Shown: positions 3,787 to 36,452 of the stretch, one piece after another
Position numbering within the stretch: position 1 is the first letter of the stretch
Layout of the letters: each line of letters opens with the position of its first letter
Source of the DNA: Massalongia carnosa
Lineage: Eukaryota
Assembly (NCBI GenBank): GCA_965645245.1
Contig: OZ287073.1
Span: 930,001-994,000 of the forward strand
Length of the DNA stretch: 64,000 bases
Direction of reading: 5' to 3'
Notes under the pieces: model-generated
What the model was told of the DNA's origin: nothing
The model's input: the letters and a program-made list of their open reading frames with translations, nothing else
Databases searched by the model: none
Made by a program: the position numbers and the translations under genes

Positions 3787-4252
3787 AGTTTCTGTTGCCT
3801 TGCTGATTAGAAAATACTCGTTCCCTGCAAGTCATTCCCTATCGTAAAAATACATGCTGATATATATTCTCCTCGTAGGTTGACAGTCTCTAAGCGAGGA
3901 TCTGGGTGAGACTGAGATTTTTTTCGCTCTTTACTTTAGTTTAGCTTACATAATCAAGAATTTAATCGTTGTTTTAAACGACTCTTACTTCGCTCACACA
4001 ACAATAATCATGTCTCCTAAACATAATGCTGCGGTTATCGAAGATCGGAGGAAAAAAATAGAATTCGAACGGGCGAAACACAAGAAGCCTGCTGAGAAGA
4101 AGTATCTATTATCGCTTGACATGAGCTCGTTTTAAAGTAACTCGTTATTAATAAAGACAAATAATTGTTTATGAGGCACGTTGGGGTCCTGAGGCAGAAA
4201 TCGAAGGTGAAGAAGGCGAAATTTTGGAGACAAGAGTTCGGGCTATGCCCGA

Positions 4253-4577
4253 TGTTGGTGTTATGCTAAAATGTTAGCCTAACGGGTAAGGTTAGGCAAC
4301 TGGTGACTGCTTAACCGGAATAGGCTTAGGATAGATTAGCCAGTGGGTGTTCCCTTCCAAATATTCGCACCAAGGTGATCAATTCTCCCTCTAATTGTAA
4401 CAGGGGTGGTAATAAGTCACCTAAGCCACTGAGCCAAAAGGCTACTATGGTAGTTCTCCTATGGAGACACTACCGCTATATATAGGTGCCCGCGCCCGGT
4501 ACGTCACCGTACCTCCTTAGGCGCTCATGTATTGCGCCCGCTGGCTAGCAGTACTGAGTACCGCTGTAACACTAATA
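4253..4577. mobile_element. Solo LTR (325 bp)
   Basis: TGTTGGTGTTA...TAACACTAATA (terminal IR with two C>T changes); exact 5-bp TSD CCCGA. Confidence 0.85.
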
Positions 4578-4906
4578 CCCGATTTTTTGAATGTTATCGG
4601 TCATAAAAGGTATGAGCTCGTTATAAATGATGATATTTATTACTGATGAGCTTGTTTAAAACGTATATAGGAGATGTCAAAGGGCGAAAATATTTCGTTG
4701 GGTTTAGACGAGGTTGATCTCGTGCTTATAATGCGTCGATGCTCGAACAATGAATGTTCGAGAAGCAAATTATTTCAAATGCCAAAATAAAAGTAAAATC
4801 ATCAATATCTGCTCGTTTTATACGAGCTCGACCTAATATTTGATATTTATAGAAAGCGGCGCAAGAGGAGTTGACTTTCGAAGATCGTCGAGAGCATTGT
4901 GTTTGT

Positions 4907-5158
4907 TGTCACGATTCTACCTTTTGCCTTTAGGAACTAAGCCTAATCGAGCACCTACGGAAACCGTAGACCTGTCGGCCGGCCGGCAGGAGTCACGAGA
5001 TAGCGCGGAAAACTCTTTCGCAACCTTACTGAATAGGGACTAGAGAGCGCGTTGCTTTATAGGGAACGAGTCCGACTTTTCGTGTCTTTCTTTCCTCTTT
5101 ATCTTTATTGTTTTCGTTCATGGCGTCCCTATGACTAGCCTCTAGGTAGACCGTAACA
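4907..5158 (+). mobile_element. Solo LTR (252 bp), related to 16771-17020
   Basis: TGTCACGATTCTAC...GTAGACCGTAACA; TSD TTTGT; inserted at the very end of the next LTR. Confidence 0.9.
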
Positions 5159-5160
5159 TT

Positions 5161-5529
5161 TGTGACGGTTCAACCAGGATGTGGAATTGACTATCTACTG
5201 GGAAGCTATGCACTAGAAAATATCAAAGATGCAGAAAGGAAACAAGCAAAAGGTGCCCTCTCTAGGAGTCTATATAGATAATCGCTTGGCCCGATCCAGC
5301 TGCTTGTGTCTTCATCAATAAGTGAACAGTTTGGTTAAACAGTCTTTCTGCCCTTTGTCCCTTTTATCCATTTGTGTTTGCTTTAGAAGGTCGTTCCGAT
5401 GCGTCCCTTTCAGACCTCCGTTGATTGCCCCTATGATTGCTAAAAGGGTTGAGTAACGGAAGCGGTTAGTGCGCCGGCAGATGCCGTACTTTCTTTTGAT
5501 TGGCCGTGGGTGGATGTGGTTGAACCGTG
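5161..5529 (-). mobile_element. Solo LTR, inverted copy of 17219-17585
   Basis: Reverse-complement near identity to 17219-17585 over about 365 bp; terminal ACA missing at the right end. Confidence 0.85.
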
Positions 5530-5950
5530 CGTCTTTTTGAGATCATACTGAGCGAATGATCTTATAAAAAAGTAAGTAAATACATCGAACATGTTTATTG
5601 TTAACAAGCTCGTTTGATGATGATGATGATGTATTCATACTCCGATATGTCACCGGCCGTAGGCCGGCCCATGCGGGCAAAGCTATCTAAGTTATGTTAT
5701 ATGGAAAACCTTTTTCAGGTGTAAAAACCATATCCCTTGATACCTGTCCGATGTGACACCGGGTCGACGTCGGACAGGAGACGCAGAGCGAAAATCATGT
5801 GAGAACTGTGACGCCTTGTGAGATAAGAAGGAAAAGAGAAGTGAAACTACTGTTAATTGTACAATAGTGTAGATGCCAGTGAGAATTGGGTCAGTAGACC
5901 TGTTTTCATTAGCCAAGTAGTTAATATCTTTAGAGTTTTTGATGTTTTGG

Positions 5951-8900
5951 TCAGCTGTTGATAGTTGTTCGTGCCAGCGGCGCGAACATCTGTTCTCTAT
6001 TGTCAATAAGTCTACAGAACATAATTACGTGTTCTGGAGTTTGTCTGTGCCAGCCACATGGGCAGGCCGGTGAGGTGACGGCGGGGACCCGTCGCTGGTA
6101 GAGGAAATCAGCTAGACCGATCTTACCGGTGCGGATCTGTGTTGCCAGGGCGCTTTCTGCCTTTTTTAGCAGCGTGTGTATTTTCAGTCGTTTTTCGCTC
6201 AGTGGGACTGATTGCGCTATGGAGGGTTCGGCGACGCGATTTTGATATGCGCTCCACAAGTCGTTCCAGACTTTCAGCTGTCGTGATTTAATTGTCTGCA
6301 TTTGTTTTTGACGAGCCAACGCTGCTACGGAGACTCCGCGGAGATGCGCTGGGGAGGGTTCGGACCATGGTGGGTGTGCTTTGGGTGGTTGAACGAATTT
6401 TGCGTCGATCAGTAGGTTTTTGGCCCAGATGTGCTTCAGCTCTCCCGGAGTGGATTTTTGAAGGCATTTGCGACCTGCCTTGCCTCGGAGTTTATTAACT
6501 ATTTTGCTGCATGCAGAAGAAATGACCTTCGATTGACCTCCAGCTCGAAATCGATGTCTGGCCTGCGCCTGTAGCGTGTCGAGGTGTACATCTATGGGTG
6601 CTATGTATGTCTCTGCTTCAAGAACTGGAATGGGAGTGGCTTTAAAGGCACCGGCTATGGTGCGAAGGCAGTCGTTTTGCATAACGGAGAGCTTGCTCGT
6701 TGACGTTTTTGACTTTTTGACTTCTTTGGGCATGTGCCATACGGTTGACCCGTATGTCATGACCGGACGCACTACGGCGCTGTAAACTTGCCTTGCTTTG
6801 GTGAAGGTGGCACCCCAAGTCGATGTGGAGATTTTTGTCAATGCCATGGATTGTTTAACTATTTTCTTTTGCGTTTTGCGAACGTGCGGTCCCCATTTCA
6901 ATTTGGTGTCAATTTGCAAGCCTAAGACTCTAATGTCCGTTTTTGGTTCAATTTTGGTACTTGCAATGTTGATAGATGCAGCTATATTGAATCTTTTGGG
7001 ATTTCTAGACAAGTGAATGAGTTCGTACTTCGTAGGATCGAATAGAGATCCGTGTCGTGAAGCCCACTTTTCGCATTGTCTGTGTATTGACTCCAGAGTC
7101 TTGCAACTCTCTTCGGTGCTTTTTCCATATGCCAAAATGTTGGCATCGTCTACAAATCCTATGGCACTTGTGTTTGTGCCTGGTCACTCACATATTTCCA
7201 ATAGGTCTGCATTATAGAATAGATAAAGGATGGATGAGAGAGGGGAGCCCTGTGGTATGCCAGTTCTCACCGCGAATCGTCCGGTCGCTTTTCGATTTAT
7301 AGCTAGAGTTGTGCTACGATCATTTAAAAAGCTGCTTAACCAATCAGTAATCCATTTCGGGATTTTTCTTTTACGTAGATTGTGCGTTAGTCTTTGATGT
7401 GAAACTGTATCAAGCGCGCCGGCGACGTCCATGCTTAAAAGTGTGGCTACTTTATCTTTTCCTTGTCCCCAAATCGTGTGAACCTGTTCGGTTAACAACT
7501 CCAGAGCTGATTCTGTAGATCTGCCCTTTCTCGCTCCCATCTGTGTGTCGGGTAGGAGCCGATGTGTTTCCACTAAATAGGTTATTTTTGATCCTATGAT
7601 AGATTCCATTACTTTGCTGAGCGTGTTGAGTAATGCAATTGGTCGGTAAGCCTTTGGAGTGGTGTAATTTCCTTTGTCTATTTTTCTTAATGCTATTGTG
7701 TTTGCCATTTTGAAGGCTCGGGGATGGTACGAAAGTGTAACGCACGCCTGAAACAGAGGTGTTAATAGTTCAACAAGTTTTTCCGCGCATGCCTTGAGTA
7801 CTCTATTAGATATGCCGTCAGGACCCGGTGCTTTATCGGGCTTGAGCCGATGCAGGGCCTTCGACACTTCTGACCTGGTGATAATCATTGGACAGTGCGG
7901 CGATGTTGGATAGAAGGATCCTTCTATATCGCTTAAGTCGGCCGGTGGTGGTGCGGGAAAGAAAATGCTTTTCAGCATTTCGGCTTTCTCATCAAACGTG
8001 TCTGCTATTTGATCATTGAACTTTAAAGTCGGCATTTTGGGTACTTCTCTAGCTGAGTGACTTTTGTCTTTGGCCCATTTCGCTAGCCGCCACAGACCCT
8101 GAGGCGTTTCGGTAGCCTTACTGATCTCTTGACGAAAATTTGTCCTCTTTGCTTTTTGGATAATTTTCTGTTTCTTGTCATTAGATTTCATGTAGTTGGA
8201 CCAGTCCGCTGGATCTCGTGTGTCAGACCATATGCGGCGTAACTTTCGTGTGGCTTTGGTGGCAATATTGCATTCTTCTGTCCAGAAAGGCTTAGCATAT
8301 TCGCTAGGTTTCGCCCATGGAACGGCTGCATTGATGACATTTTGTAGGAATTTTTGAATCGATTCTGTGTACGTATCGATCTCGGCAGGTGTGCAGAGAG
8401 ACGTCGGTGGAGGTGCGTGGCGCTCGGCTTCCTTTAATTTTTCCAAATTCAGAAGTTTCCATGCCCTGCGTTTACTTTTTGGTTGCGACTCACTACCGAG
8501 TAGGATGCGGGTTGATATCGGTACATGATCGGACGATTGATTTAATTCTGGTCTGGTCATGCAGTGTTCAAGTCTTTCAACTAGATATTCTGACATGAAA
8601 ACTAGATCGATCGTGCTAAACGTGTTTCTTGCTTCCCATGTTACGGTGCCTTTCGGCAATGTTAGCGAAAGATTGAATTCATCGATGATATCTAACAATT
8701 GATCAGCTGCAGCAGGTTGTGTGGGTCTTGAAGGACCGTTCCAAAATGGATGATGCAGATTGAAATCACCAAGCAGGATATGATGCATGCCTTGGGTTAG
8801 CATGCTCCGAGCGGTCGATAGAGTGGAAGGGCTGTCAGTGGACGAATAGGAGGCAGGGGAGGGATTGTATACGTTGTGTATATGGATCACCTCCGCTACG

Positions 8901-9212
8901 CCTTCGGTGCATGTTTCTATTTTTAGCGTGCACATGTCGGCCGAGGGAAATTCTACTTCCCAGCTGTCAGTGTCTATTGAATCGTTGATGTAGAAGCACA
9001 CTCTGGTGTCGCCTCCTGGGCGGTATAGAAGGTGAAAGCCACTTTGATGTGAACTGAGCGATGTGGGGGGCGGATGGGTTGCGCCACGGCTCCTGTATTG
9101 CAATGATATCATAGTCCTGGGTGTTTGTGTCTGCTAAGAGGGGTATCATAGTACTCACTCTGTCATTTCTGACATTATACTGCAATATCGAGAGGGATTT
9201 TGTGTCCCTCAT
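5951..9212 (-). pseudogene. LINE ORF2 (endonuclease-reverse transcriptase), frameshifts near 9080 and 7185; no recognisable RNase H
   Basis: ILQYNV, IIAIQEPW, LLGDFNLHH, SDHVPI (APE); KAPGPDG, YRPIALL, GIPQGSPLS and out-of-frame FVDD (RT). Confidence 0.92.
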
Positions 9213-10690
9213 AGGATTTCCATGGTTTCGACCACTGTGACTGGGGTGGCCTGGGTACCTGTCGTTACTACGGATTCTGCACGGGGTCTACCTAGCGCTG
9301 GTTTTGCTAAGGCTTTGATCATGTTTTCAAGATTCATAATGCCTATATTAGCCCAGGTTGATACTTGCTCTCCTCGGGGGAAGCCAGGTGATAAATCGGC
9401 TGAGAGCCCCGCGTTGTGCATTTTTCTTTTCTTGCCGTTCACAATCTTCCACGTTGACGAAATTTCGTTCGTTTGTGTAGCTGCGAGTGTCGGCGCTCCT
9501 TGAAACTGGAATGAGGGCGACTGTGACTCGATTGTGTATAGTGGAGCGCGATTTTGCATAGCAATTTCAGTTTTTCGCTTTTCAGCCTTTCTAATTTTGC
9601 ATGCTGTAGACCACGCCTCGTGTCCCTTCTCTCCGCATACGGCACATCGACGGTATTGCCCCGTTGTCTCCAAGTTGCATTCTTTACTTTGATGTCCACC
9701 GGCACAGTGACCACAAGCGGCGGGATTGCGACATGATCTACCTATGTGGCCATATTTCTGACAATTGAAGCATTGGGTCATGGTGCAACCGCGTGTAAAA
9801 CGCTCACAGTCTTTTATTTCGTAGTCCTCCATCAGGCCCTCGGTGATGAGCCGGTTGGCCATCTCGGTGGTAGCGAACTCCATGTGTAGCGTGGAGTATG
9901 CTTTCTTCTCCCTGATGGCCTTGACTGACCAAGCTACTTTGATGATCTTGAGGTCAGGATGCAGGCGTGCGTTAGCGGCCTGCAGGTACGCGATAGCAGT
10001 TGATTGATTGGCCACTTTGATGTTTTCCACCCTGATTCCATTTGCCCTTACCGTGAAGGTACGAGTATTCACCGCTGCGGAGGCGGCCATTATGCGGGTC
10101 CAGTCGGTCTTTTCCTGCAGAATTTTCTTTGCCTCCAATGACTCCGTGTGAATCCTTATGTCGCCATTTAACAAGCGCGACACTCCTCGTATTCCTTCCG
10201 CTCAATTTTGCAATGTTTCTACCAGCTCTTTGGTTGGCCTCAGCTTTATTTTTTCCCTATCTGCATTCTCCGTTATGTGAACAGTGATTTCTCGAGCGCG
10301 TCGCGCTTCCTTCGGTGTAGGTGTTTTGTCCTTTGAAGTCGGTTGGGACTTGACATTTTTGTTCGCTGGGGGTGCGGGTCTATCACGACCTCGCCCTGTG
10401 GCGGCAGCGGCGTAGCTTTGGGGAGTTGTATCCTTCCGTTCTATGCGTGTCAGTGTTTGTTGAATAGATTGTAGAGTGTCATTGAGGATATTGGGCGCCT
10501 TTGCGACTTCGTCGTCGATCTGCTTTTGCGCTTCCAAAAGCTCCGCTGAATTTTTCAGCAACTGTAACGCCACCGGGTCACCCACAGTGCCCACACGATC
10601 AAGATAATCCTTGATTTTCTCACGCAAGCTTTCCTTCTTTTCGCTATGTTCATTCAAGAACGCGTTTTGCTGATTGAATGAATTCATCAT
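9209..10690 (-). pseudogene. LINE ORF1 (gag-like), frameshift near 10200
   Basis: ORFs 10202-10690 and 9209-10183; QCFNCQKYGHIGRSC, CGHCAGGHQSKEC and CAVCGEKGHEAWSTAC knuckles. Confidence 0.9.
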
Positions 10691-10787
10691 TAAAATAAAT
10701 CTAAATCCGAATCGGTCAACAAGCTCGTTTTAAACAGTATTAAATAATCATTAAAAACGAAAGAGCAAATGTTGCTGTCGATCTTTT

Positions 10788-11150
10788 TGTCACGGTCTGT
10801 AGGCAGAGGTCCTATCCATGTGGTGAACAGTGCTTTATTATGAAGTATGCTACATGATAACTAGACAAGACGAACACGAAGAGAAAAGCATTGCCTGTGT
10901 TGTAGAGGTGGAGTGGACCTCCACCAGATGGGCAGATGACAGGTGTACGCGAGGGTCAGTGCTACCGAGCACTACTGCCGGCAGTCACATGATCGCCCCT
11001 GAGCTGTCAGTTATAGTCCCGCTCGCCCACTTCTTCTGTTCAGTTTATCCTTCATCTCTTCATCCAGTCAGCTAGTCAGTGCGCACGTAGCAACTTGACG
11101 ACGACGATGACCTGATCATTAATTTCTTTTCATATGATGGCCCAGTGACA
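10788..11150. mobile_element. Possible solo LTR (363 bp)
   Basis: TGTCAC...GTGACA termini and typical size, but no matching TSD. Confidence 0.45.
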
Positions 11151-11194
11151 GTACGATTGATTCATAGACGCACACTACCCAGTTTATCCTCCTT

Positions 11195-14100
11195 TGTTGA
11201 ATGGCGGTTGCGATTATGGTTATAATGGCTTGTTGGGCTCACTGCCTCATAACGTGGATAGCGGGTAGTCTAATCTTCTCTCGGAAGGTTTAGGTTTAGC
11301 GTGCTTTGCCCTTTGGTGAAAAGTCTGTTCTTTTCCTTTTAGATAGCTTTATAGTCAATGCGATCACTTGCAACCAGAGCCTCCTTTTAACTGGTTATGA
11401 GCACGGTCAGCAACAAGCTTCCGAACATCAGAAAAGGATATAGCTCTTCGCAAATCGCTATCTCGGCAGCTCGACTACGATTCCTTTAGGTAGGAAGAAT
11501 CAGCACCTCGGCAGCTCCTTACGATTCCTATGGTAGGATAAACCAGCACCTCGGCAGCTCCTTACGATTCCTGTCGCAGGATAAACCAGCACTCCCGGCA
11601 GCTTGATACGACGGATCCAACAAGCACAATCAAATATCAAAAATGACAACAATCGCAGACGATCTAGCGAAAAGAAGACCCTTGCCCGTTCTGACAAGGG
11701 AGAACTATCAAAGATGGTTCGAGCTGGCCGAAATGCATTTCGAAGCGGAAGGCATCTTTCATACAATAAGCGAGCCACTGCCCAATTCCTCGTACCTTCA
11801 GCAGCGAATGGACAAATTAAGCCTTGATGGAAAAGGAATAGAGAAATCAGACACACCCCTCACCCCGGAAACCCCATTCATCGATTCAAAGGACAACGCT
11901 AAAGCATGCTATCTTATAACCATCTGCTTAAGCCAATTCGATCAAGAACGCGTAAGAGTGATGAAGACAGCGGCGGAAAAGTGGACCTCGCTGTTAAGCA
12001 AGTACAACAACATCCTTCCTACTTCAGGAAGGCATTACCTTCAAGAGCTGGTGTCATAAAATGAAAGAGAACACCACCGTTCAGGAGGCATGGGGGGAAC
12101 TTTTGTTGTTGAGAGATAAGGTCGTCATGGCCACACCCACACTTCGAGACGCATTTCCCACTCAGCAACTATTCCAATTACTCTTACAATCTCTCCCAGC
12201 CGAGTACGCGGTCATTAGGGACGGAATTGATGCAATTTGGGTAGTAGATGCCGAAATTGGCATAAAAAGGTTGGAAGACAAAGAAATGCAGCTAACACAG
12301 GCGAAAGCAGATTTAGCCTTGCTCGCAAAGCAGAAAGAACAGCGAAGAGAGCAGCGACGGCCTCTCAACCCATCCAGAAGTCGAAGCACATTCAACAACT
12401 CCAGGCAGGAGCGATCCAGACGGCACGAAAGGTCCTCAAGTGCAAAGAGAGAAACGAAAACAAGGTCAACTCGCAAAAGGGATGCTTAATCTGTGGAGAA
12501 GTCGGCCACTGGACCGAAGAGTGCGAATTCTTGGAAAGCACTCGCAGCCACGTCAGGAGCCTCGCGAAGAAGAAGAAAGAGGTCAATAAGGGCAAATCAT
12601 CCGTCAAGCGACATCGGAGCTATCTCGCTGGCGAGTCAGAAGAAGAGGACGAGAACGATAGCTTCTCATCAGGCGACAATGACGATGATCTGATGATCTC
12701 GAGGAAACTGCGGCCCTCTCCAGAGAAGCTGTCTGTAAGATTCCCAGATCAAAATTTGAAAGAAGAATAAAGGTCGGCGGGGGAGAATTGAGAGCATGTC
12801 ATCGCGGTACGTGCGTGATCAAGGATGGGCACGGAAATCAGGGATTTCTTTCTTCTGTCCTTTATGTCCTAAGCTAGGGGTTAATCTCTTGTCTGGAAGG
12901 CGGATGTGCGAGAAGGGCCTCATCGGAAGTTTCGATCAGCACGGGCTGAAGATGCATGACAAGCAAGGCAAGGAGATCATGGAGGCACGGCAGCGAGGGG
13001 GAGTATATATCGTCGAGAAATAGCAAAGGATCTCGATGATTTCACGTTAACCGCGTCCATGCATCATGACATTGCCTTTCCAAGCAAAATTGATATTGCA
13101 TCACTCTCGTCTTCATCAGAGGCGTTAAAGCCGCGCGGCGCGGGTTTAACATGTCCAACAACACATAACAATATGGAAATCAAGATTGAGTCAACACCCG
13201 CACTTAACCCAACTAAGACGGACAAACACTCTGAAACGTACAGGCTATGGCATCGAAGATTCGCTCACCTAGGCCGAGAAAAGCTTCGTAACCTCCATAA
13301 GGTCACCACCCTAGAAAAGCCTATTCCGGTCAGCAAAGAAGAGGATCACATTTGCGAGGTATGCGCGCTCACTAAGCTCACCAATAAAAGAGGTAAAGCG
13401 ACCGAGCGAAAAACCTCTCTTCTGGCCCTGGTCTCCATCGATATTTGCGGTCCTTTGCCTGCCTCTCGAGAAGGATACATATACTTTTTGGAAATTGTGG
13501 ACAACTATTTTAGAAAGATATGGTCCATTCCACTCAAAACGCGAGACGAAGCACCAGGTGAATTGCGAAAATGGAGAATAAAAGTCGAATTACAAAGTGC
13601 ACAAAGACTATTGGCTGTACGGAGTGACAATGCCACCGAGCTGAAGGCTACTCTTGATGAATGGTGCTCCTCAATCGGTATTATTCCGCAATACACCGTT
13701 CCTCATATGTCTATTCAGAACGGAGTCGCCGAGCGAGCAATTCGTACCACCGAGAACTCGGTGCGAGCCATGATAAAGGACGCAGAACTCCCAATCGAAT
13801 TCTGGAAGGAAGCCATGGAAACTGATGCATATCTTCGGAATCGCACGGGATGCGGACCGATCATCGACGGCTATGCTAGCACACCGGAAGAAGCCTTCAC
13901 GGGCGTCAAGCCATCCATTGATCACATTAGGGTATGGGGATGCAAATGCTATTCGTACGTCGATCCCAAATCGCTACCCGCGGAGGACAGAAGAGACAAA
14001 TTCATGGACAGAGGCAGAATCGGAGTCTTTATGGGATATGTAGAAGAGACCACTAAACAGTATCGTCTCTAGGCACCCGACATGGGAAAAATCATCAGAA

Positions 14101-16431: not shown

Positions 16432-16770
16432 TCCTTCAGTGTTATTGGAATTTGCCGACATACCTGAATATTTGCGACCGAGGTTCTTTTGCCTCCTGCT
16501 TACTAATTTCCAAATAAGGCAATCATATGCTATATGCGAAAAGCTTCAGATATCGGCACGACTTCGGCAACTACGAGGAGGCAAAGGTATGCAGCAAAAA
16601 TGCTACATTTCGGAGGCAATTCAGCTGTTCATGATCACTGAGTGTCTCGGTGTCTCCGGTCAGCGATAAGGTGTATTTTGCCCAGCTGAAAAGGTTCAAA
16701 GGAAGCAGGTTCATGCATTTGATATAGGCCGAGATGGAGGCCTTCAAGCAGTATAAAGAGACGGTGATTC

Positions 16771-17020
16771 TGTCACGATTCTACACGGCACGACCTCGGC
16801 ACTCGGCACCGCCTAGGGCAATCGTAGATGGAACACGCAGGCACTTTCGATTTCGTTCCCGCAGCTACTAGAAGGTTCCATAACGACTATACCACATGGG
16901 CAATAGCGCAGTAGAGGATATATAGGGTCAGGTTCTGGTTGTCGATTGTCTTTTCCTTCTTCATCTTGATTGTATTCGTTTCTAGTGTCCTTATGACTTG
17001 TCTCTAGGTAGATCATAACA
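16771..17020 (+). mobile_element. Solo LTR (250 bp)
   Basis: TGTCACGATTCTAC...GTAGATCATAACA; exact TSD GATTC. Confidence 0.92.
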
Positions 17021-17218
17021 GATTCCTCATGTAATTTAGCTATTCAGTCGTTCAGAATTCAGTTCAGCAGATAGCTAAATTTGGAGTATCTTCACTGGAA
17101 ATACGGAGTACCTGCATCACGTTTGCCAAGCACTTCTCTTTGCCTATCCTTGATAGCCCTAGACCCTCTTCTCCCGCATCCCGCTGCCGTATGCCTGGTT
17201 GATTTTTTGTTCAACAAG

Positions 17219-17585
17219 TGTCACGGTTCAACCACATGCACCCAAGGCCAATCAAAAGAAAGTACGGCATCTGCCGGCGCACTAACCGCTTCCGTTACTC
17301 AACCCTTTTAGCAATCATAGGGGCAATCAACGGAGGTCTGAAAGGACTGAAAGGGACGCATCGGAACGACCTTCTAAAGCAAACACAAATGGATAAAAGG
17401 GACAAAGGGCAGAAAGACTGTTTAACCAAACTGTTCACTTATTGATGAAGACACAAGCAGCTGGATCGGGCCAAGCGATTATCTATATAGACTCCTAGAG
17501 AGGGTACTCTTTGCTTGTTTCCTTTCTGTCTAGTGCATAGCTTCCCAGTAGATAGTCAATTCCACATCCTGGTAGAACCGTCACA
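17219..17585 (+). mobile_element. Solo LTR (367 bp)
   Basis: TGTCACGGTTC...GAACCGTCACA; second copy inverted at 5161-5529; flanks ACAAG/GCTTG do not match. Confidence 0.85.
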
Positions 17586-17789
17586 GCTTGCTTGCAGAGA
17601 TTTCCTATATGCCTCCCTGAACGGCATCCTAAGCCCAATGCGGTTAGCTCGTAGCAGCGCGGAAGTAGCAACATACGAGCTGGTCAGTGCGACCGAGTTA
17701 AACCTTAATGGTCTACCTACGGCAACCCTAGATAGAAGTTCAATGAACCTTCTGATGTTCAGTTCACATCAACACAAGATCGTTTTGCT

Positions 17790-18980: not shown

Positions 18981-19062
18981 GTCTTGCTGTGACGAGTTTA
19001 TATTCAACGAGCTCAAAACAAAAATTTAATTATTATTAAACGTGATAATAAAACATGTAAGA

Positions 19063-20560
19063 GTCCACCGAAGAGAATTGCAAAACGCTGGAAAAAATAC
19101 ACGACTGCGAACGATGGGCCGCTCGCCACGGCTCCGTATTCGCGCCACACAAATACGAGCTGATACACCTAGCAAAGAATCCAAAGAAATTCAACCTGGA
19201 CGCATCCTTCGCGGTAAGAGGCAAGATCCTGAAGACCAAGACTTCGATAAGAGTCCTGGGAGTATACATTGACACTAGACTCGATTGGGCAGCGCATTAC
19301 AAGGAAATTCAGAAGAAAATGACGAGACAAACAATGGCACTGACCAAAATCGCAGCCTCAACCTGGGGGGCGACCCTCCTACGAGCCCGCCACGTGTACA
19401 CAGCAGTGATACGCCCCGCCATGTCGCACGGCTCGATAGCATGGCACATGCCAGCCGAAGCAAGAAAGAAAGCCAAAGTCGAATCAAGAAGCAAACTCGA
19501 AGTCATACAAAACAAGTGTTTACGAGTCATAGCCGGAGCGTACAAGGCTACCCCAATTGAAGTATTACAGGCAGAAACCCACATCCCTCCCTTAACGCAA
19601 CATCTAGACCGCTTACAAGCAAAAACGAGATCCAGAATCTCGAACAGCGAACAGGAAAAAATTATAAAGCAGGCGTGCAATAGAATTCAAGTGAAACTCA
19701 GAGGTAAAAGAGGTCAATCGCGAGTCGCAGAGAAAACACCGGGAACTCGTAAACGAGAATGGGTAACAAAGATGACGAAAGACGCACCGAAAACAATTAA
19801 ACTGGATCAACCCTCTCCCCCTCCCTGGACAACGATCGACGAGGCACAGAAGAGACAACGCACAGCGCAAGTAACGACGCAGAACCAACGAGACGGGATA
19901 ATAAAGAAGCACTTTGAGAATCAGTGGATCAACAAGTGGAAAGCATATCAAGCAAAACACACGTTATATCCCACGATCACACAACAGGCGCCTATACACA
20001 GGAAAAGGCTTAACGCACACAAGTTACTAGACAAAGCGCAAAGCTCACTAGCAACACAGATAAGAACGGAAAAAATCGGACTGGCCAACTTTCTATATCG
20101 GCGCAAGGTCCCAGGTGTGAACTCGGCGGCATGTCCCTGCGGAAGCCTCTTACAAACAGCCAAACATGTAATCATGTTCTGCAGACTGCACGAACACAGA
20201 ACGCACATGCTACGAACGGCAGGCTCGTCAGACTACCGCAAGCTAATCACCGAACCCAAAGCTCTCAAAGTAGTAACCGCGTGGCTCATGCGCACAGGTA
20301 TTTTAACACAGTATTCCATTGCCACGCAACTGCTTGAACAGCAGCCGGGCAGTCTCTTCAGTTTGAAAAACAGGTATCGCAGATTTTCGAGATACAGGAA
20401 TCAATCTGCGGGAGCGGCGAACCCCCGATGAAGCGGATACGCAGGAGTAGTTTTTCACCTTTGGGTTTTCTACTTATTACATAGCTTATATAGCATCTCC
20501 CGCATGGGCCGGCCTTCGGCCGGTGACACAACGGCGTAAGAATAATCAAATCAAATCAAA
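19063..20560 (+). mobile_element. 5'-truncated Tad1-like LINE (second family)
   Basis: ORF 19319-20431 homologous to the C-terminus of the LINE ORF2; conserved 3' hairpin; (ATCAA)n tail; approximate TSD AAAA(C/G)ATGTAAGA. Confidence 0.9.
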
Positions 20561-20607
20561 AGATGTAAGAAACGAGCTCGATGTGTAAGAGATGTGAAAA
20601 TATTAAC

Positions 20608-21096
20608 TGTCATGGAATTACTTCGCACCCTCCCACGTTTCCTGATCGGGTTAGTATTTAACAGGCTCTCTTGCCGTGAAACCTGCCCTGCATGTTGAAT
20701 GGAACCGTGGCCCGTTATTCCGAACTATCCTGAAACCTCACCCCATGTGTTCAGACGTTCTTCCGCTGCCTTCAGTGCACTCCCAAACTCCTATATCCCG
20801 AATCCAATCTCAACGTCTCCATTATCCAAGCCTACGACTGGGATTGCCCAGCAGAGAGAGATTGCTTCGGCATGGAGAAAGGCGGAACAGGTCAAAGCGA
20901 TCATGGTTAGGAAATTAGAACAGGAACAGAAATGAGGGCAAGTCAAGAATAGGGGAGTTGGAAGCCATGGCTATAAAACCTATGTGGTTTCTCAGGTGTT
21001 TGGAGCTCTTCGTCGGACGTCTTGTATACTATCCCTGGACCTAGCTTTCTAATAGTAACTCTTGCATATCTCCCTATCTGGACCTTGTCCGTGACA
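20608..21096. mobile_element. Solo LTR (489 bp)
   Basis: TGTCATGGA...TCCGTGACA; exact TSD TTAAC. Confidence 0.9.
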
Positions 21097-21194
21097 TTAA
21101 CACTAAGAAACAACGCTTGCTCTCTCGCAAGCAACCCTTTTTTTTTTCAAACAAACGACATACGGTTGATTTTCTTTGTCAAATTATCTATTTG

Positions 21195-21432
21195 TGTTGA
21201 ATATCCAACTCCTATTAGTACAATAAACACTTACGAGTTCAATGAACTAGGAAACCGTAGAAGCCGCATTAGGCCTAGTCTCAGGATAAGATAAAGATTA
21301 CCTCGCTTAACAGAAGGTGACCAGTAATAGGATAAAGATTGCTGAACAGTATTCTTCATCCTTAACATCACGGTTATACATACACTTATTATTACATAGT
21401 CATATAGCTATAGTCATATACCTATTTCAACA
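21195..21432. mobile_element. Solo LTR (238 bp), related to 23232-24766
   Basis: TGTTGAATATCC...CCTATTTCAACA; exact TSD ATTTG. Confidence 0.92.
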
Positions 21433-21490
21433 ATTTGATAACATTTATAATATTAAAGCTCGTCGTGAACGTGCTTTTTTAAGTCGAAAG

Positions 21491-21805
21491 ATGCCTCTCA
21501 AAATCAAGAAACAAATTCCAGTTCGAGGAAATCTTTCTATACAAGACGCTGTTAGGAAAAGTCACTTGAATAACGAGCGCGCTGATGACGATCTTCGTAC
21601 TTTCGAGCAAAGAGAAGCGAGGGTAGCTTTTGCTCATAGATATTGTCTTGCGAGTAAAAAGACAATGACTGAAAAAAAGGAAGATACACGTCTGATCGAT
21701 ATGTTAAAACGAGCTCGATTTAATGGAGGACAATTACTTACATTAAATAACCACTACTGCTGCGCTGAATGCCACCACTATATTAAATTCTGTGATGAAT
21801 TCTGA
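21491..21805 (+). CDS. Small basic hypothetical protein of the scaffold element (MPLKIKKQIP...CCAECHH)
   Basis: ATG in good context, 104 open codons, C-terminal Cys/His cluster; no family recognised. Confidence 0.35.
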   Translation: MPLKIKKQIPVRGNLSIQDAVRKSHLNNERADDDLRTFEQREARVAFAHRYCLASKKTMTEKKEDTRLIDMLKRARFNGGQLLTLNNHYCCAECHHYIKFCDEF

Positions 21806-21940
21806 CACTGCCTTATCTTCTTCTCGACCTTTTGTCACATTCGTTCTCAATGAAAGTGATCCCTTCATTTCTAAATGAGCTCGTTTCAAGAGATCAATCT
21901 CAACTAGTCTTTTCCCGTATAGAGACTCCATTATCCAGTA

Positions 21941-23212: not shown

Positions 23213-23231
23213 TCCATTATCCAGTACATAT

Positions 23232-24766
23232 TGTTGAATATCCAACTCCTACCAGTACAGTGAACACCTACCAGTTCAATGAACATAGCACCTACGACTG
23301 CCCAGACACGCGGGTGACAAAATAAATTGCAACGTGTAAGCGAATTTACCCCCCCTTTTTTATTCAAATTTTCATCTCATCATCAACCATCATCTGCATA
23401 GCTGATAAAATTCATCTAAATTACATGAGATCAATAACCAGTCATCGCCCCCTTTGCATCTTTCACCTCTTCAATCTTTTGGGCATGGATAACACCCTTT
23501 CATTGATAAATTCTTGACTGACTCGAGCCCATCCCTCCCTAATCAGCTGCTCCAAACTTGCATCGTCCCAATGAGGAAATTTACGAACATGCTGCTTTGC
23601 GGGCTGCCAGCAATTTTCAATGGGAGCTAGATCAGGAGATGAAGCACAATTGAAATAGTGCTCTAAATCGTGATCTAACTTCCACTTTTTGACCGCGTTT
23701 CGTGTCTTGCCCGTGCCATGACCAAAGTCTCCATCTTCTTCAAGTACGAAGTCATCTCCACGCTCCAACCAGGGCTTGACGACGGGATCAAGAATAGCGT
23801 CAATATACACCTGATGAGTCATTTTTCCATTGCTATTGCTGGGCACATCGTAGAAGTAGATATCCGACTTGAAATTGTAACCAACTGCTGCCCAGCAGTG
23901 CTTTCTTTTACGATCTTTCTCAGGTGGTGCATCACGATGCTGAATACAATCCCAACGATATCTTGTTCCGGGCTTACGAATGATTCGTAACTGTCCTTCA
24001 GGCCCATAGCCAAAATGAATCTCATCGCTGAATCGTACGCGATGCCAGTCTTCGGACCGAGGATATTTATTTAACATAACTGTAGCAAATTCTTCTCTTC
24101 TTTCTTCTGATGCCATTGCCAGCCACCCTTTGACACAGGCTAGACATTTGTGATAATTCAAGGCAGCTGTAAGAGTTCTCTTCATTGTACGTCCCATCAC
24201 GTCGGCCCCAATCTCCTGTGCTAAAGCATCCCATGTGTAGCGTTTTCCTTCCAATTGTAGATCTTGATCCTGCAGAATGTGATCTGCCTCCTTCAGCTGA
24301 TCATCACTAATCTTTCGCTTTCGACCCCGAGTCTCAACGAGAGAAGAAGCTCCGCTTTTGATGATGTTATAGCCCGCGCGCTCGGCCACGCCAAATTCCT
24401 GAAAAATGGCCCGTGGATCGAATGGAATTGCATGTGAGATGAGAAATTGATAAGCTCCTTGAACTTTGGCCTTTGTGGGAGTATCATAATGAGGCTTTTT
24501 GGGTCGAGACATTGATGATGAGATAAAAAGTTGAAAAAAAGGAGGGTGTTTTGATGGGGCATTCAGGGGTAAATTCGCTTACACGTTGCAATTTATTTTG
24601 TCACCCGCGTGCCAGAGCAACCACCTACGGAAACCGTAGATGCCGTATTAGGCTTAGCCTAGAGATTAGATAAGATCGGCTCGGATAATCTTATCACCTC
24701 GCTTAGCAGAGGGTCATACATATCAAAGCCATACCATATAGCCATAGTCATATACCTATTTCAACA
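23232..24766. mobile_element. Solo LTR interrupted by a DNA transposon
   Basis: TGTTGAATATCC...CCTATTTCAACA; TSD CATAT; similar to 21195-21432. Confidence 0.9.
23307..24611 (-). mobile_element. Tc1/IS630-type DNA transposon with 46-bp perfect TIRs and a 5-bp TSD (CCAGA)
   Basis: TIR CACGCGGGTGACAAAATAAATTGCAACGTGTAAGCGAATTTACCCC at both ends; transposase 24512-23463 with FSDE, EEDGD and SPDLAPIENCW (DD38E); 1-bp frameshift near the C-terminus. Confidence 0.95.
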
Positions 24767-27067
24767 CATATCATCATTATCATTACATCGTTTCATCAGA
24801 TAAAGCCACAGATAATTTAGAAGAAATAATGCAAAGAATTGTACAGGAGGCAAAAGCTAGTAAATCAGGAACATTAGCAACATTGTCTCGTTCTAAACGA
24901 GTAAATTCTCAAACGACAGATACAGCGAGTTCATCACCAACGAAGAAAAAAAAACAACAACGACTGTCATGTTACACGGTCAAATGACTTTCACGATTGA
25001 TGATGTACCTGCTCCTCCGCATGTCAAATATGCTGAAAATATGAGCGCCTTGTTTGATGATTAGGAGAACAAACATCTGCGCAAGTGCATGTGAAAGGTG
25101 TCAGCGTATCTGTAAGTTATTGAGGAACGTTATACAAAGGTCAATATGTCAGAAACATGGACTCTCATCAAAGGATATTACAGCAATTGAAAGATATGTT
25201 TTGACAAGCTCTTTTAAAAAGGACACTTTTAAAACGAAACAAAGTGCATCGTGCAGGAACGACGCAGTTACGCAAATGAAGAGGATCTTTGGAATGCACG
25301 CATGCGATGTGCGAAAAAGACGGGAAATATGAAACACATGAGTCAAACAGAACTGTTAAGAGTTATTCGTAAAAGACGAGCAAGCATCAACGCGCGAGAT
25401 GCAATAATGACTACTCTGGATGACTAGGATATGCAACAAACCTAGATATGCAACAGCACTAGTAGGTGTTTATATCTGATGTTTATCCGATGTGTTTATC
25501 CTGAAGCATTCCTACCAAAATTTATACTGTACCGTCTCAACAGCCCTTACAAATCAGCCAATTGACCTATACCTACTCTCCAACCCTCAACCCTGGCCAT
25601 TGAAGCTATAATTGGTCTCAGCGCCTGGCCTAGCCATCCCTCCGTTACCAAAATATCATGCAAGCTGTTGAGGAAGACCCATTAGAAGGGGAATCAGATA
25701 CAGAGGTCATCCCAAGGCGTGAGCGCATGGAGCTTGCTCTGATCTCCTTTGCCAAAGCTATAAAGCGGTGGGATGAATATGAACTCCAGCCTGAAATAAA
25801 GCCTAAGCAAGAGAAGCCTTCATTCCGCCAATATGCCATCAAATACAATGTTTGCCATACAACATTATATCGACGATACAAAGGAGAAACATTACCTCAT
25901 CACAAAGCTCATCAAGCCCAACAACGCCTCACTTTCATTATGGAGGAATGCTTAGTAAACTGGATCGAATTATTGGCCAAATGGGGCTTCCCTCCAATGA
26001 TTTATCGAATCAAGTTACAAGTAGAAGAGATTCTCCAAAAAAAGGAAATCATACCCCATTGGGATGTCACTGGGTGGAGAAGTTCTTGAATCGACATCAT
26101 TCGTTAAAATCTCGCTTTTGCACTCCGTTAGATAAAGAGCGCATCAATGCAGTCAATTACGAAACAATCAATCATTGGTTTAAGCTCTTTTCGGACACAA
26201 TGAAGCAATACAACATTGAAAAAAGATACGTATATAATATCGATGAGAAGGGCTTTGCAATAGGCCAAGCAGGCAAGAAGAAAGTAGTGGTTTCAAAGGC
26301 AAACCTCAATGCATACATGTGTCAGAATGGGAGCCGGGAATAGGTGTCTCTTCTTGAATGTATCTCTGCAGATGGAGCACTTCTTCCTGCTTTCGTCATC
26401 TTTAAAGCAAAGACTCAAAGGAAGGCCTGGATGAATGAATTGGAGCGAGGTAATAACATCGCTATCATTGAGAAGGGCTGGACCAATAATACACTCGCTT
26501 TCGAATGGTTTAAACGTGTATTTGATCCATATTCGAAGAAGCGACAACAAGGCGAATATCGCTTGCTTATCCTCGACGGGCATGCGTCTCATATTACGTC
26601 GGAAGTTATCCAATTCTGTATCAATGAGAAGATTATTCTTGCTTGCCTTCCAGCTCACACGACTCACGTCCTCCAGCCGTTAGATGTGGGTTTCTTCCAG
26701 CCACTGGGGAGTCTCTATCGGACCAAGCTACTGCGTCTGATAAAGTGGGATAGCAGTGCTAACGTGGATAAGGTCGATTTCATTGATTTATATCAACGAG
26801 CTCGGAGTGAGACAGCCAAACTCACTACTATTCTCAGTGCTTGGCAGAAAGCACTTCTATTTCCTCTGGATCCAGAGAGTCTTTTGAAGACATTGCTATA
26901 GCCGAAAGATGTGATAAACACTGTTACTCTAAGGCCGTATACGCCACCAGAAGTATACTTCCGATCGTCGGATGGCGTCGCTATATCCGCTCCTACCAAG
27001 ACTCCAAGAAATGCAGCTGAATTCGATGAAATCGTCCACAAAGCTATTGATGGGAAGGCTACCCAGC

Positions 27068-27439
27068 TGTCACGGTGCGAGGTCAGGTAGAAATTCAGAT
27101 TGTGCAAACGTATTACTTGATTGTCTAGCTAGGTGGACAAGACGTTCGACAAGGAGAAAAGAAACAGAAAATCCAACGTGGGCGAGTATAAGACTCTGGC
27201 GAACGGAACCAGTCCCAATCCAGCCGTTGATCCAATTTCCCAAGTCCCTGGCATGAAACTATCGCTATGACACTATTGACAGTCCGAACACTTACCTTCA
27301 GCCGGAACACTTACCTTTGCCCTGACTAAACCGGATTAAGCTTAGTTCCTTTCGGATCGGCTAGCCGGCTAGTGCTTCGTTCAAGCAGCTAAGGTTGGTT
27401 CAATGAACTAACTGGCAGGTGCCCAGTCACTCCATGACA
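27068..27439. mobile_element. Solo LTR (372 bp) inside the pogo transposase
   Basis: TGTCACGG...CCATGACA; TSD CCAGC. Confidence 0.9.
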
Positions 27440-27676
27440 CCAGCAAGAGATTATGAAGCTAGGCAAGGCTGGATCAAAAGCGTACGTCGAGAAAGTGTTA
27501 TTAGAGACTAAAAATACTGAATTGTTGAAGAATCAACAGTGTAAAAAGGAGAAGGCCAAACGTTCAAATCAACAGCTCGGTAAAGGACGTATAATGAATC
27601 ATGACGTCCTCGAAGAACGGGAGATGAAGAAGCACACAGAGGAGCAGAAGAAGCGTGCAGATAAACAAGAGAAGGA

Positions 27677-27999
27677 TGTTGGAACTGTGACTGCAACAGG
27701 CGGAATGGTAGCACTGGGTAATTGATATGACTAGTTCGACAAACGAGTTCTTGCACATGCAAAACAAACTGGGAGAAACGATTGACTTTTTACAACTACG
27801 TAAGGTAAAACTGCTCCTATTTATGCCCGTCCACCAGCGATTCCAGAAGCTTCCATTTCCATCTCATCGGTTCCTTCTTCCGATGCGCTTTCTGACTTCA
27901 TACAAATTTGCCACCGCCACAAGCCTTTCCTTGCCGAGTGTAGATGCAAATTGCTTTGTCAGCTGGTTTCGGTACTTGGCATCGGTTGCCGTTTTAACA
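27677..27999. mobile_element. Solo LTR (323 bp) inside the pogo transposase
   Basis: TGTTGGAAC...GTTTTAACA; TSD AAGGA; removal restores KQEK|EFWEAW. Confidence 0.88.
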
Positions 28000-29283
28000 A
28001 AGGAGTTCTGGGAGGCTTGGAAATCTGTGTGGAGCCTCATTGCAGAGCCCAAACCTCAAACTCTAAAAAACAAGACAAATAAGAAGGCACAGGCTATCCA
28101 GCCAATTTCCATCGATTTAGACCCTTCAACACTTGCTCCGCCAGAGCCCTGCTTAGAGAATGAGGATCCGGAGTTCGCTATACAGACTGAGGTACAGGAT
28201 GTTAGGGGTAAAGGGATGAGAGGTAAAAGAGGCAGGAAGTCAGCCAAGGCCCGAAGTGAGGGAATACATAAAATCAAGGACGCTGTGACGGTATTGCCTG
28301 TATATACGGCTTCTGGGAGGATAGTGAGACCTCCTAGAAGGCGAGATTGACTGCTTTATATACTACATCATGTATAATATAGCACTGAGCCGGCCTAGCG
28401 GGCGGGGCCCAAGCACCAAAGCTTTCTAACCATTAATTCGGCCGTTGCTTGCAATTATCAGTGCTCTGAAGATACTGCAGCCAAATTCGATAAGGAAGAC
28501 TGGCAATGCTAATCAGAAGATTATCGGTCAAACTTCGGGTAAACCCCTACTAGTGCTGTTGCATATCTAGGTTTGTTGCATATCTAGGTTTGTTGCATAT
28601 CTTGGTTTGTTGCATATCCCAGTCATCCCGAGTAAAGAGCTCGTTCCTAACGAGGAGTTTATCAAGAACTTCTCTTACAAGAAGACGGGTAAGCAATATA
28701 TTTTGACTAAACCGGGTGATATTGCGAAGCAATATCGCAAGTTGATGGGCAAACCTCAACATTGGGATGAGGATCAGGATCAGGACAATTAAATCGAGCT
28801 TGTTATAAACATCAAATTAACTATGTTATCGCATTGTGTTGTGCAACATTTTGCATGAATAATGCGCTATATAAATCAAGTGCGCTCACATATAGATAAC
28901 TCGTTGAAAACAAGCTCGTATTAAACGAGGACATATATTTAAATTAAAGATCTACGCCCATATGGCCTACATGATTACAGGTTAGTTTACGAACGGGTAC
29001 CCCACCGTGCCGCTATAAATGATCGATGACCGAAATTTAAGTGATATCCTCATGATATGTGCGAAGATTCATGATTCAAATCTTGCGGAGTCCTATTAGT
29101 TACTATGCGAATATTTTATTTTTGGTTCGTTTTAAACGAGCTCGTAGAAAATTCTTTGAGACTGTCAATTTTCATTGTGAAGTCCTCCGTGCTCGTAAAT
29201 TGCGGGCTCTAAAGACAAATGTGAAATCAGTTTCAAGATCAAGAGTTGACAGTCTCAAAAAAGACCTCTAGTCCCTTGAAGTT

Positions 29284-29555
29284 TGTTAAATGGTGAGGCT
29301 ACCATCGGTTAAATGGTGAGGCTACCATCGGTTAGATGGTTAGGCTACCATCCATCGTGAGTCCCACGGGTGCCTGCCAGGCATCTATAAGAGGTGCCTA
29401 ATAGGAGGTTATGGAGGTGCCTAACAGGCAGCTATGGGAGGCCTACAGCATTACTGTATGTGACTGCTATAAAAGCAGGTAGATAGCCCACATAGATAAT
29501 TACCTTCAATGACAATCATGCTATTATACCTACACGTGAATTTTACTATTCATCA
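29284..29555. mobile_element. Solo LTR (272 bp) with 3 x 23-bp internal tandem repeat
   Basis: TGTTAAATGGT...ACTATTCATCA; TSD AAGTT; unit GTTAAATGGTGAGGCTACCATCG. Confidence 0.75.
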
Positions 29556-30245
29556 AAGTTTAGGTAGGATGAAATCGTGGCTTAAGATGAAGATACGGGG
29601 ATTACGAGCTCGTTTTCAACGACAATCATGCGATTTTGGCTCGATTTTCAAGGACATAAAGCTATCAATGTCTCACAGATGTGATGCACAATTTATATCG
29701 CTTTTATTACTGCGCGTTAACAACGAGTACGTTGTAAATAATTGTTCAATGGTTGTTGTTCTTGGTAGGGTAATCGATGACAAATCGAGATGTGGGCGCT
29801 AGGCTCAACATGGACGCGCTAAGTGAGGTGGGGATGAAGGTGCGAGTTCAATTCCTGCCAATGGCGACTTGAAGATCGACCATGGCTGGCTGTATCTAGC
29901 TAAGACAATACAATTAAGATACTAGAGAATTATAAGGTGCTGCAGAGTGATAGGTAAGATATGCTAAGTGTCCAGTAAGGTGTCTATGACAGGGTGATTG
30001 CCCCTGCCATGATTCCATAAGCGCCCGAATGGTGTGCTTGGATAATTTCCCGTTTAGGGCACCAGCTGAAGGCGGGGCACAAACCCTACATACCTACTCC
30101 ATATTAGTACAGAGTACTCCGTATCATGAACGATAATCTTCCTTCTCTTCCGTTCATTATGGACGACCTTTGCTATTTCTTTGCTTCCTCTGGTCGTTGT
30201 CTTTCAGGATTGCCATAACGGAATACAGAAGACTACACAATCATC

Positions 30246-36333: not shown

Positions 36334-36452
36334 ACATACAACAACCGGGATTCGCTGGTGGTCACCCACCCAACTACTAATCGATCGATCTGAGTCTTCA
36401 GTATGGCAGAGCGGACGGGATACCCTGTTTTCCTCAGTCTGTGGTTGTATGT
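36334..36452 (-). rRNA. Dispersed 5S rRNA gene
   Basis: 119 nt ACATACAACCACAG...CCCGTCCGCTC...TTAGTAGTTGGGTGGGTGACCACCAGCGAATCCC...TTGTATGT, followed by an oligo-T terminator; TA-rich box about 25 nt upstream. Confidence 0.96.

Follow-up and report, generated by a model that had tools for sequence, protein, structure and literature searches.

Introduction

Some plant transposons recognise themselves through arrays of short motifs that are bound by an element-specific protein, as is the case for TnpA, the Ac transposase and VANC. The 12-bp subterminal repeats bound by TnpA in En/Spm and the AAACGG hexamers of Ac are present in many copies and in both orientations, with inverted pairs acting as strong sites for the element-encoded protein, and in both elements the motifs cluster in the 200-300 bp or so next to the terminal inverted repeats. 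Comparable self-recognition systems have to our knowledge, no literature search having been made on this point, hardly been described in fungi, and the transposons of lichen-forming fungi have been little studied. Here we analyse a stretch of 64,000 nucleotides from Massalongia carnosa (contig OZ287073.1, positions 930,001 to 994,000; hereafter the window, to which all coordinates refer), in which nested transposons interrupt about 4 kb of non-inserted DNA, the scaffold, that carries a dense palindromic motif and the remains of a gene, here called G2.

The palindrome resembles the target of VANC21 in the transposon VANDAL21 in being a short motif that is strongly enriched in a single element family but scarce outside it; recognition depends on this density (PMC5735166). 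However, the VANC21 motif YAGTATTAY is non-palindromic and lies in one orientation, mainly in non-coding DNA, whereas in the scaffold the orientation alternates strictly on a 15-bp lattice at high density and some sites lie in what was once coding DNA, three arrays falling within the former coding sequence of G2 instead of forming a single-orientation, non-coding array of the VANDAL kind. The hosts differ as well, VANDALs being Mutator-like elements of a plant (Arabidopsis) and the present host being a fungus, and Pfam found neither a Mutator-like transposase nor a VANC-like protein in the scaffold frames or in the related proteins P0002-P0008. Unlike the end-clustered motifs of En/Spm, the scaffold arrays span the whole 4.1 kb, the termini of the scaffold not having been located, and a Pfam search of 23 + 12 open frames between 1 and 32 kb found no CACTA-type transposase or TnpA-like protein, domains being present only in the nested elements.

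Two fungal systems offer partial parallels. AflR is a dimeric zinc-cluster factor with the target TCGN5CGA (PMC3202775). The scaffold motif likewise consists of palindromic pairs of TCG/CGA triplets at fixed spacing, but the spacing is not N5, as CTCGT-N5-ACGAG corresponds to TCG-N7-CGA and the 10-bp core ACGAGCTCGT to CGA-N2-TCG; the context is also unlike that of AflR sites, with about 15 arrays in 4 kb and no biosynthetic genes nearby. CryptonF elements are mobile elements of fungi, a few kb long and lacking inverted termini, that encode a tyrosine recombinase together with a GCR1_C DNA-binding domain (PMC3212892). Here the likeness lies in the N-terminal part of G2, to which GCR1_C clusters are nearest by language-model features (0.85), a lead only, for which Pfam gave nothing at E ≤10. 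No frame scanned matched a tyrosine recombinase, and no longer, fused relatives of G2 were found.

Enrichment of the Palindrome

The scaffold was reconstructed by excising the nested insertions, which gave 4,113 bp and left 59,887 bp as the remainder of the window. In an unbiased comparison of 5- to 8-mers between scaffold and rest, ACGAG, ACGAGC, ACGAGCT and ACGAGCTC came out top at every k, with ACGAGCT occurring 16 times in 4,987 bp of non-inserted DNA and 7 times in the 57,663-bp remainder used for this comparison. The exact 10-mer ACGAGCTCGT is present twice (29136 and 29604; 0.06 expected; 0 of 100 shuffles reached two), and the 14-mer, allowing two mismatches, nine times, all within 4119-29615 (0.29 expected; 0 of 100 shuffles reached nine). 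Allowing one mismatch, the 10-mer core was found 11 times in the scaffold as compared to a mean of 0.12 and a maximum of 2 in dinucleotide shuffles, none of 1000 reaching 11, and allowing two mismatches 19 times (shuffle mean 1.38). Only four cores with at most one mismatch are present in the other 59,887 bp (5604, 10719, 26796, and 52186), of which the first two are a single site doubled as the target-site duplication of a long interspersed nuclear element (LINE). Relative to the rest of the window the core is enriched about 40-fold, and relative to shuffles about 90-fold.

Among 221 tiles outside the scaffold, the 31 with a GC content of at most 0.43 held a single core match, and the density of half-sites in these AT-rich tiles was 0.19 per kb as compared to 4.86 per kb in the scaffold. 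AT-rich DNA outside the scaffold is nearly free of the motif; the enrichment is real and local, and does not stem from base composition. A preceding sequence-only reading had described the palindrome as packed into only about 4 kb of non-inserted DNA and as essentially absent from 30-58 kb. It had named two contrary outcomes, a density no higher than a dinucleotide-matched background and equal frequency in all AT-rich DNA, and within the window neither was observed; in 30-64 kb the motif is nearly missing, with 52186 as its one match. Of the 18 places listed in that reading 14 are good matches, whereas four (17774, 21455, 25204, and 29722) are weak, having at least two core mismatches or only a half site. 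The 10-mer ACGAGCTCGT is contained in 35 papers, of which the 15 listed look, by title, like cloning or primer uses, with nothing on fungi among the matches listed.

A 15-bp Lattice of Alternating Half-Sites

When 13 sites are combined into a symmetrised profile, information is present in CTCGT and a second time from +10 to +14 (A A C G A). Half-site pairs were counted in the scaffold with at most one mismatch at every spacer from 0 to 20. Head-to-head pairs (ACGAG-CTCGT) occur 11 times at spacer 0 and 0-1 times at every other spacer, tail-to-tail pairs (CTCGT-ACGAG) 10 times at spacer 5 and 0-2 times at every other spacer, and same-orientation pairs 10 times at spacer 10. No spacer-5 pair is present in the other 59.9 kb, and shuffles gave a mean of 0.08, with 0 of 500 reaching 10. 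As the spacers are fixed at 0 and 5, the period is 15 bp, and the palindrome is one face of an alternating lattice in which ACGAG, CTCGT and five A/T-rich bases are repeated.

The 21 half-site pairs merge into 15 arrays of 10-30 bp, each of one to two units. Four or five lie in 4119-4831, one each at 19006 and 20572, three in 21459-21884, three inside G2 (24887, 25366, and 28635) and five within 1 kb past the G2 stop codon. More than about 14 bases away from the centre, the flanks have nothing in common, and the arrays are thus not copies of a longer duplicated segment. Four arrays have a spacer-5 pair without an adjoining head-to-head pair (21459, 24887, 25366, and 29713); only 24887 and 25366 are new compared to the earlier list, which had 21455 and 29722 near the other two. 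The sites are as follows.

4121..4130, unstranded: head-to-head pair ATGAGCTCGT with one CpG transition (core and mismatch scan)
4612..4621, unstranded: head-to-head pair ATGAGCTCGT, with a weaker copy ATGAGCTTGT 34 bp further at 4646
4812..4831, unstranded: 20-bp array of three half-sites, CTCGT-N5-ACGAG then CTCGA
5604..5613, unstranded: ACAAGCTCGT, duplicated as the 13-bp target-site duplication of a LINE, with the second copy at 10719-10728; located between inverted units resembling long terminal repeats (LTRs)
19006..19015, unstranded: site AACGAGCTCA, 56 bp ahead of the next site after removal of the LINE fragment 19062-20557
20572..20581, unstranded: head-to-head pair ACGAGCTCGA, adjoining the target-site duplication of that LINE fragment
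21459..21473, unstranded: tail-to-tail pair CTCGT-N5-ACGTG
21709..21718, unstranded: head-to-head pair in the 105-codon open frame 21488-21805, where it reads KRARF
21875..21884, unstranded: head-to-head pair ATGAGCTCGT; the peptide NELV through the site is also found in the diverged copy P0007
24887..24901, unstranded: perfect tail-to-tail pair CTCGT-TCTAA-ACGAG in G2, coding for SRSKR
25366..25380, unstranded: tail-to-tail pair TTCGT-N5-ACGAG in G2, coding for IRKRR
28635..28654, unstranded: 20-bp array AAGAG-CTCGT-N5-ACGAG in G2, coding for KELVPNE, with a pogo element at the TA directly before it
28794..28803, unstranded: TCGAGCTTGT, with two mismatches, just past the G2 stop codon
28900..28929, unstranded: the longest array, four half-sites in 30 bp, equal to two full 15-bp units
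29126..29145, unstranded: 20-bp array TTCGT-N5-ACGAG-CTCGT with a perfect 10-mer
29604..29623, unstranded: 20-bp array ACGAG-CTCGT-N5-ACGAC with a perfect 10-mer
29713..29727, unstranded: weak tail-to-tail pair CGCGT-N5-ACGAG

As single-stranded DNA the array at 4812-4831 folds at -6.1 kcal/mol (z -3.98). One of six folding windows outdid all 200 of its shuffles, but a hairpin or cruciform reading of the sites was rejected, as 8 to 175 of 200 shuffles fold at least equally well in the other five. The motif as a LINE landing site was rejected likewise, since it coincides with the target-site duplication in only one of three LINEs.

The Scaffold as an Old Low-Copy Repeat

The stretch is represented in public sequencing runs, among them X1, X4, and X5, the last (28% of sampled words) being labelled a lichen metagenome. 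One X5 contig of 4,810 bases aligns to the scaffold at 21433-21940 (88% identity, 63 differences, 1 gap), 24765-25409 (89% identity, 69 differences, 5 gaps) and 28634-28759 (93% identity, 9 differences). Joints at matching depth skip from 19004 to 20567, from 20590 to 21100 and from 25409 to 28634, and such joints recur in X1 and X4. Hence a second copy of the repeat, 7-12% diverged in the aligned pieces and free of the nested insertions, exists in other runs. This copy is unaligned between 19004 and 20567, that is between the motif sites 19006 and 20572, where an insertion or deletion with a motif copy at either end could have occurred. The X1 contigs that are identical to the window have depths of 670-850, and bins of pure scaffold reach summed depths of 2,946 (24930-25337) and 6,551 (28602-29009), about 4 to 9 times as high, suggesting that the repeat is present in a handful of copies, although summed contig depth is not a copy number.

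A short open frame upstream of G2 also has a relative elsewhere.

21488..21805, + strand: 105-codon open frame upstream of G2; its relative P0002 is 78% identical and ends earlier

P0002 is encoded on a 2.02-Mb contig and reads without interruption across the site at which the window has a solo LTR (21195-21432); its earlier end is consistent with neutral drift. The ratio of observed to expected CpG is 1.17 in the scaffold as compared to 0.87 in the whole window, with TpA/ApT at 0.88 and (CpA+TpG)/(ApC+GpT) at 1.10, and by these dinucleotide ratios neither a signature of repeat-induced point mutation nor CpG depletion was found in the scaffold. The scaffold is itself a decayed, low-copy and now dead repeated element of about 4 kb, and what lies between the nested transposons is this old repeat together with several solo LTRs rather than host intergenic DNA.

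The Broken Gene G2

The repeat carries the remains of one gene.

24829..28792, + strand (parts 24829-25413 and 28635-28792): G2, a broken gene of about 250 codons that a pogo element interrupts (tblastn of family members)

Six in-frame stops were counted in 24897-25412, and two frame changes are deduced from the alignment. When 24897-25412 was read through its stops and compared with 1.84 billion representatives, three relatives were found, to which a profile search added two. All five (P0004-P0008) are fragmentary, 60-212 residues long, and come from at least four contigs. P0007 lies on a 4,810-base contig taken to be that of X5, and with the copy in the window six of the six family members seen are fragmentary or broken. 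Searching with the family by tblastn gave one gene copy in the window.

Pfam gave nothing for the scaffold frames or the family members P0002-P0008, even at E ≤10, and G2 matched no sequence of a solved structure. Among 8,000 candidates none was a longer or fused form of G2, and no relative was found in metagenome contigs scanned with N- and C-terminal family profiles. In a language-model search the closest neighbours of the N-terminal part were two GCR1_C clusters, at 0.85, a score reached by a third of shuffled proteins; the search gave no usable match for the C-terminal half. The C-terminal half was modelled at a pLDDT (predicted local distance difference test) of 80.7, whereas the model of the N-terminal part (pLDDT 32.9) is unusable; compared with solved folds, the C-terminal model had no match (best Foldseek E 2.1; best VIA-align Z 4.1). 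Protein fragments encoded by copies on other large contigs thus match both G2 and the open frame upstream of it, and the repeat has a gene family of its own, for which no name emerged.

Decay of the Sites

The 19 core sites contain 25 mismatches, comprising 10 CpG transitions, 3 CpG transversions and 12 changes elsewhere, 5 of them at the outermost base. CpG transitions are thus the commonest class of variant but not the majority that the sequence-only reading had seen in them, and the decay of methylated CpG to which it attributed them has left no bulk sign in the scaffold, where CpG is more frequent relative to expectation than in the window as a whole. Mean divergence from the consensus is 25 of 190 core positions, or about 13%, which is close to the 7-12% between repeat copies and agrees with the sites having been perfect in the founder.

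Possible Origins of the Lattice

We tentatively favour, at somewhat less than even odds, that the lattice represents cooperative binding sites for a dimeric protein on this element; the protein, its binding and its effect are all predicted. The arrays would be former cooperative sites for a sequence-specific dimer that acted on the element, with the G2 product, a lost transposition protein or a host factor as candidates. At least nine younger transposons or LTR relics later inserted into the element, and the sites have since decayed about as fast as neutral sequence. Sites for a dimeric protein are expected to show the features seen here: two fixed spacings, orientation that alternates strictly, dispersal over unrelated contexts and confinement to a single repeat family. 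In the diverged copy P0007 the site at 21875 is still read as NELV. The sequence-only reading had likewise proposed sites for a dimeric, element-encoded protein by analogy with CACTA and VANDAL transposons; the occurrence of the motif on a repeat with a gene family of its own and at spacings 0 and 5 only agrees with dimeric-type sites associated with an element, whereas membership of the CACTA or VANDAL groups was not upheld.

Several observations weigh against binding sites. No DNA-binding domain was found by Pfam in any scaffold frame or family member, the GCR1_C lead does not exceed what a third of shuffled proteins reach, and the confident C-terminal model of G2 resembles no solved fold. 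Three arrays lie in former coding sequence of G2 and one in the upstream open frame, and the sites therefore do not avoid coding DNA, unlike those of VANC or TnpA. In addition, the 15-bp period is equally expected from a decayed micro-repeat, the sites are decaying with no sign of present constraint, and the lattice was read as DNA in one copy of a repeat whose ends were not found.

A more specific version, which we hold to be quite improbable, is that the repeat is an undescribed fungal mobile element without DDE transposase, reverse transcriptase or tyrosine recombinase, whose sole gene, G2, encodes a dimeric protein at most distantly GCR1_C-like that recognises the lattice along its own DNA. 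If the G2 product does bind the lattice, an unnamed protein family would gain a function and a ready-made recognition sequence, and such self-binding would be a fungal counterpart of plant self-recognition by VANC and TnpA.

Instead of binding sites, the lattice may be a neutral relic, the main alternative though somewhat less probable, in which a 15-bp palindromic unit spread in the founder by slippage, hairpin-driven misalignment or unequal exchange and left decayed stubs of one to two units that have no protein partner. The strict 15-bp period would follow directly, no array exceeds two units, and the sites decay at about the rate of the remaining repeat; moreover, an indel between motif copies could explain why the other copy is unaligned over 19004-20567, which comprises the LINE fragment and 56 bases between the sites 19006 and 20572. 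Slippage, however, normally produces one or a few long arrays, whereas the arrays here lie in 15 unrelated contexts over 4 kb, including the inside of a gene, with flanks that are unlike beyond 14 bases, no evident mechanism of dispersal and unremarkable hairpin stability in five of the six folding windows. A decayed micro-repeat of 15 bp explains the period equally well, and the dispersal less well, than binding does. Since VANC targets are reported to evolve through tandem-repeat formation (PMC5735166), the neutral and the binding explanations are not mutually exclusive. Even as a decayed micro-repeat only, the lattice would be a useful diagnostic marker for annotating this repeat family.

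The binding protein could also have been a host dimeric factor that reads CGA/TCG triplets, such as a zinc-cluster protein, with sites in the promoters and untranslated regions of small genes that belong to a segmental duplication, no mobile element being involved. Such a factor is made possible by the geometry, TCG-N7-CGA in inverted and CGA-N2-TCG in everted arrangement being an AflR-like kind of site, and the failure to find a transposition protein or element termini and the apparently low copy number of the repeat point the same way. We nevertheless consider it unlikely, as six of six gene family members are broken or fragmentary, which is unusual for regulated host genes, the sites are also found in coding sequence and downstream of the gene and not upstream alone, and the two flanking host genes lack the motif in their promoters, as do the remaining 34 kb of the window apart from 52186.

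An intron- or RNA-level element, acting through hairpins in pre-mRNA, or a preferred landing site for transposons is very unlikely. Arrays do lie in two AT-rich GT...AG stretches (4611-4671 and 4798-4856) that look intron-like by eye. However, the four introns that the sequence-only reading assigned to a pseudogene starting at 4010 did not hold up: the ATG at 4010 opens only 41 codons without a Pfam match, nothing else supports the gene, and at least three arrays (24887, 25366, and 28635) lie in former exons. As for landing sites, three of ten nested insertions abut arrays (the LINE at 5616, the LINE fragment at 19062, and the pogo element at 25414), but the motif forms the target-site duplication in the first of three LINEs only, the arrays, being flanked by T- and A-rich DNA, offer ordinary targets for LINEs and for insertion at TA, and for two of nine scaffold insertions to abut sites occupying about 7% of the scaffold the binomial P is estimated at about 0.14.

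Least probable of all is a former coding repeat of five codons whose arrays would be remnants of a pentapeptide repeat or of basic patches, for although the period is divisible by three, two of the three unit frames are open whichever strand is read (R-F-K-R-A and V-L-N-E-L) and the G2 patches SRSKR and IRKRR are kept in relatives (RSKR in P0005 and P0007; VKRARIN or RKRRKSIN in P0006 and P0008), the arrays within G2 use two different frames (R-x-K-R for 24887 and 25366, E-L-V for 28635), most arrays lie where every frame is closed, and tblastn found a single gene copy in the window.

Nested Insertions and Other Features of the Window

Insertion boundaries were taken from reading of the sequence, from self-comparison of the window and from contigs of other sequencing runs that join across the insertions. 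In long open frames between 1 and 32 kb Pfam identified pogo/Tc5 (DDE_1, HTH_Tnp_Tc5, and HTH_psq), Tc1/mariner (DDE_3), LINE (Exo_endo_phos_2 with RVT_1) and Copia (rve and RVT_2) domains. The window is a eukaryotic transposon nest of fungal type, and the host is probably a lichen-forming ascomycete. The nested insertions are the following.

5161..17585, unstranded: block between two inverted LTR-like units of about 370 bp, enclosing a LINE and a Copia element (self-comparison, Pfam)
5616-10717: LINE in this block, with the 13-bp target-site duplication AACAAGCTCGTTT
11192-16431: Copia element in this block (rve and RVT_2 domains)
~17792-18973: small inverted-repeat element with a Tc1-like fragment at 17818-18857; empty form in five X1 contigs
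19062..20557, + strand: nested 5'-truncated LINE fragment with the target-site duplication AAAA(C/G)ATGTAAG
20608..21096, unstranded: solo LTR-like insertion with TG..CA ends and a TTAAC duplication; missing in the other repeat copy (joint 20590 to 21100)
21195..21432, unstranded: solo LTR with TG..CA ends and an ATTTG duplication; missing in the copy encoding P0002
21941..23213, + strand: nested 5'-truncated LINE fragment with the target-site duplication CCATTATCCAGTA
23232..24766, unstranded: second solo LTR of the family of 21195-21432, with a CATAT duplication; contains the Tc1/mariner element 23299-24619
25414..28632, + strand: nested pogo/Tc5 transposon (HTH_psq and DDE_1) with a TA duplication; empty site in other contigs (joint 25409 to 28634)

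The Tc1/mariner element at 23299-24619 is skipped in contigs of other runs by a joint from 23304 to 24622. Further LTR relics are probably present in the scaffold at about 4283-4578 and 4907-5158, a tentative placement taken from reading of the bases and from self-comparison.

The LTR-like units at 5161-5533 and 17219-17585 mimic the 378-bp terminal inverted repeats of a 12.4-kb element. Each unit of about 370 bp has inverted ends of TG..CA type of its own, and the two resemble LTRs in opposite orientations, which could have resulted from an inversion or from two independent insertions; no matching target-site duplications were found around them. The 3' ends of three LINEs (5616-5730, 20464-20563, and 23098-23212) share a conserved GC-rich palindromic stretch, after which comes a short (ATC)n or (AATC)n tail in place of poly-A, and the target-site duplications of the three LINEs are 12-13 bp long and mutually unrelated.

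The 11-mer TTGACAGTCTC is present three times in the scaffold (3879, 29158, and 29247), two of the copies, separated by about 80 bp, making up an inverted repeat of 14 bp at 29155-29262. Three tandem units of 23 bp at 29287-29352, where summed contig depth is very high in all runs, probably belong to a small, high-copy element lying within the scaffold.

A second element of Tc1/mariner type is located at 34293-35620, with inverted ends of 103 bp (34293-34395 and 35518-35620), and is 67% similar to the one nested at 23299-24619 (stretch 23431-24053). A complete gene for 5S ribosomal RNA lies at 36333-36452 on the - strand, isolated among transposon relics (Rfam RF00001, 66.7 bits, positions 1-120 of 120); it was the only gene reported in an Rfam scan of the window, and neither telomere repeats nor transfer RNA genes were found there. 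Direct repeats at 58805-59134 and 63671-64000 are 100% identical over 330 bp and 4,866 bp apart, and are probably those of a very young LTR retrotransposon, the second repeat being cut by the end of the window. Finally, 49806-50067 consists of about 2.75 tandem copies of a 95-bp unit with an A-rich run at the unit end.

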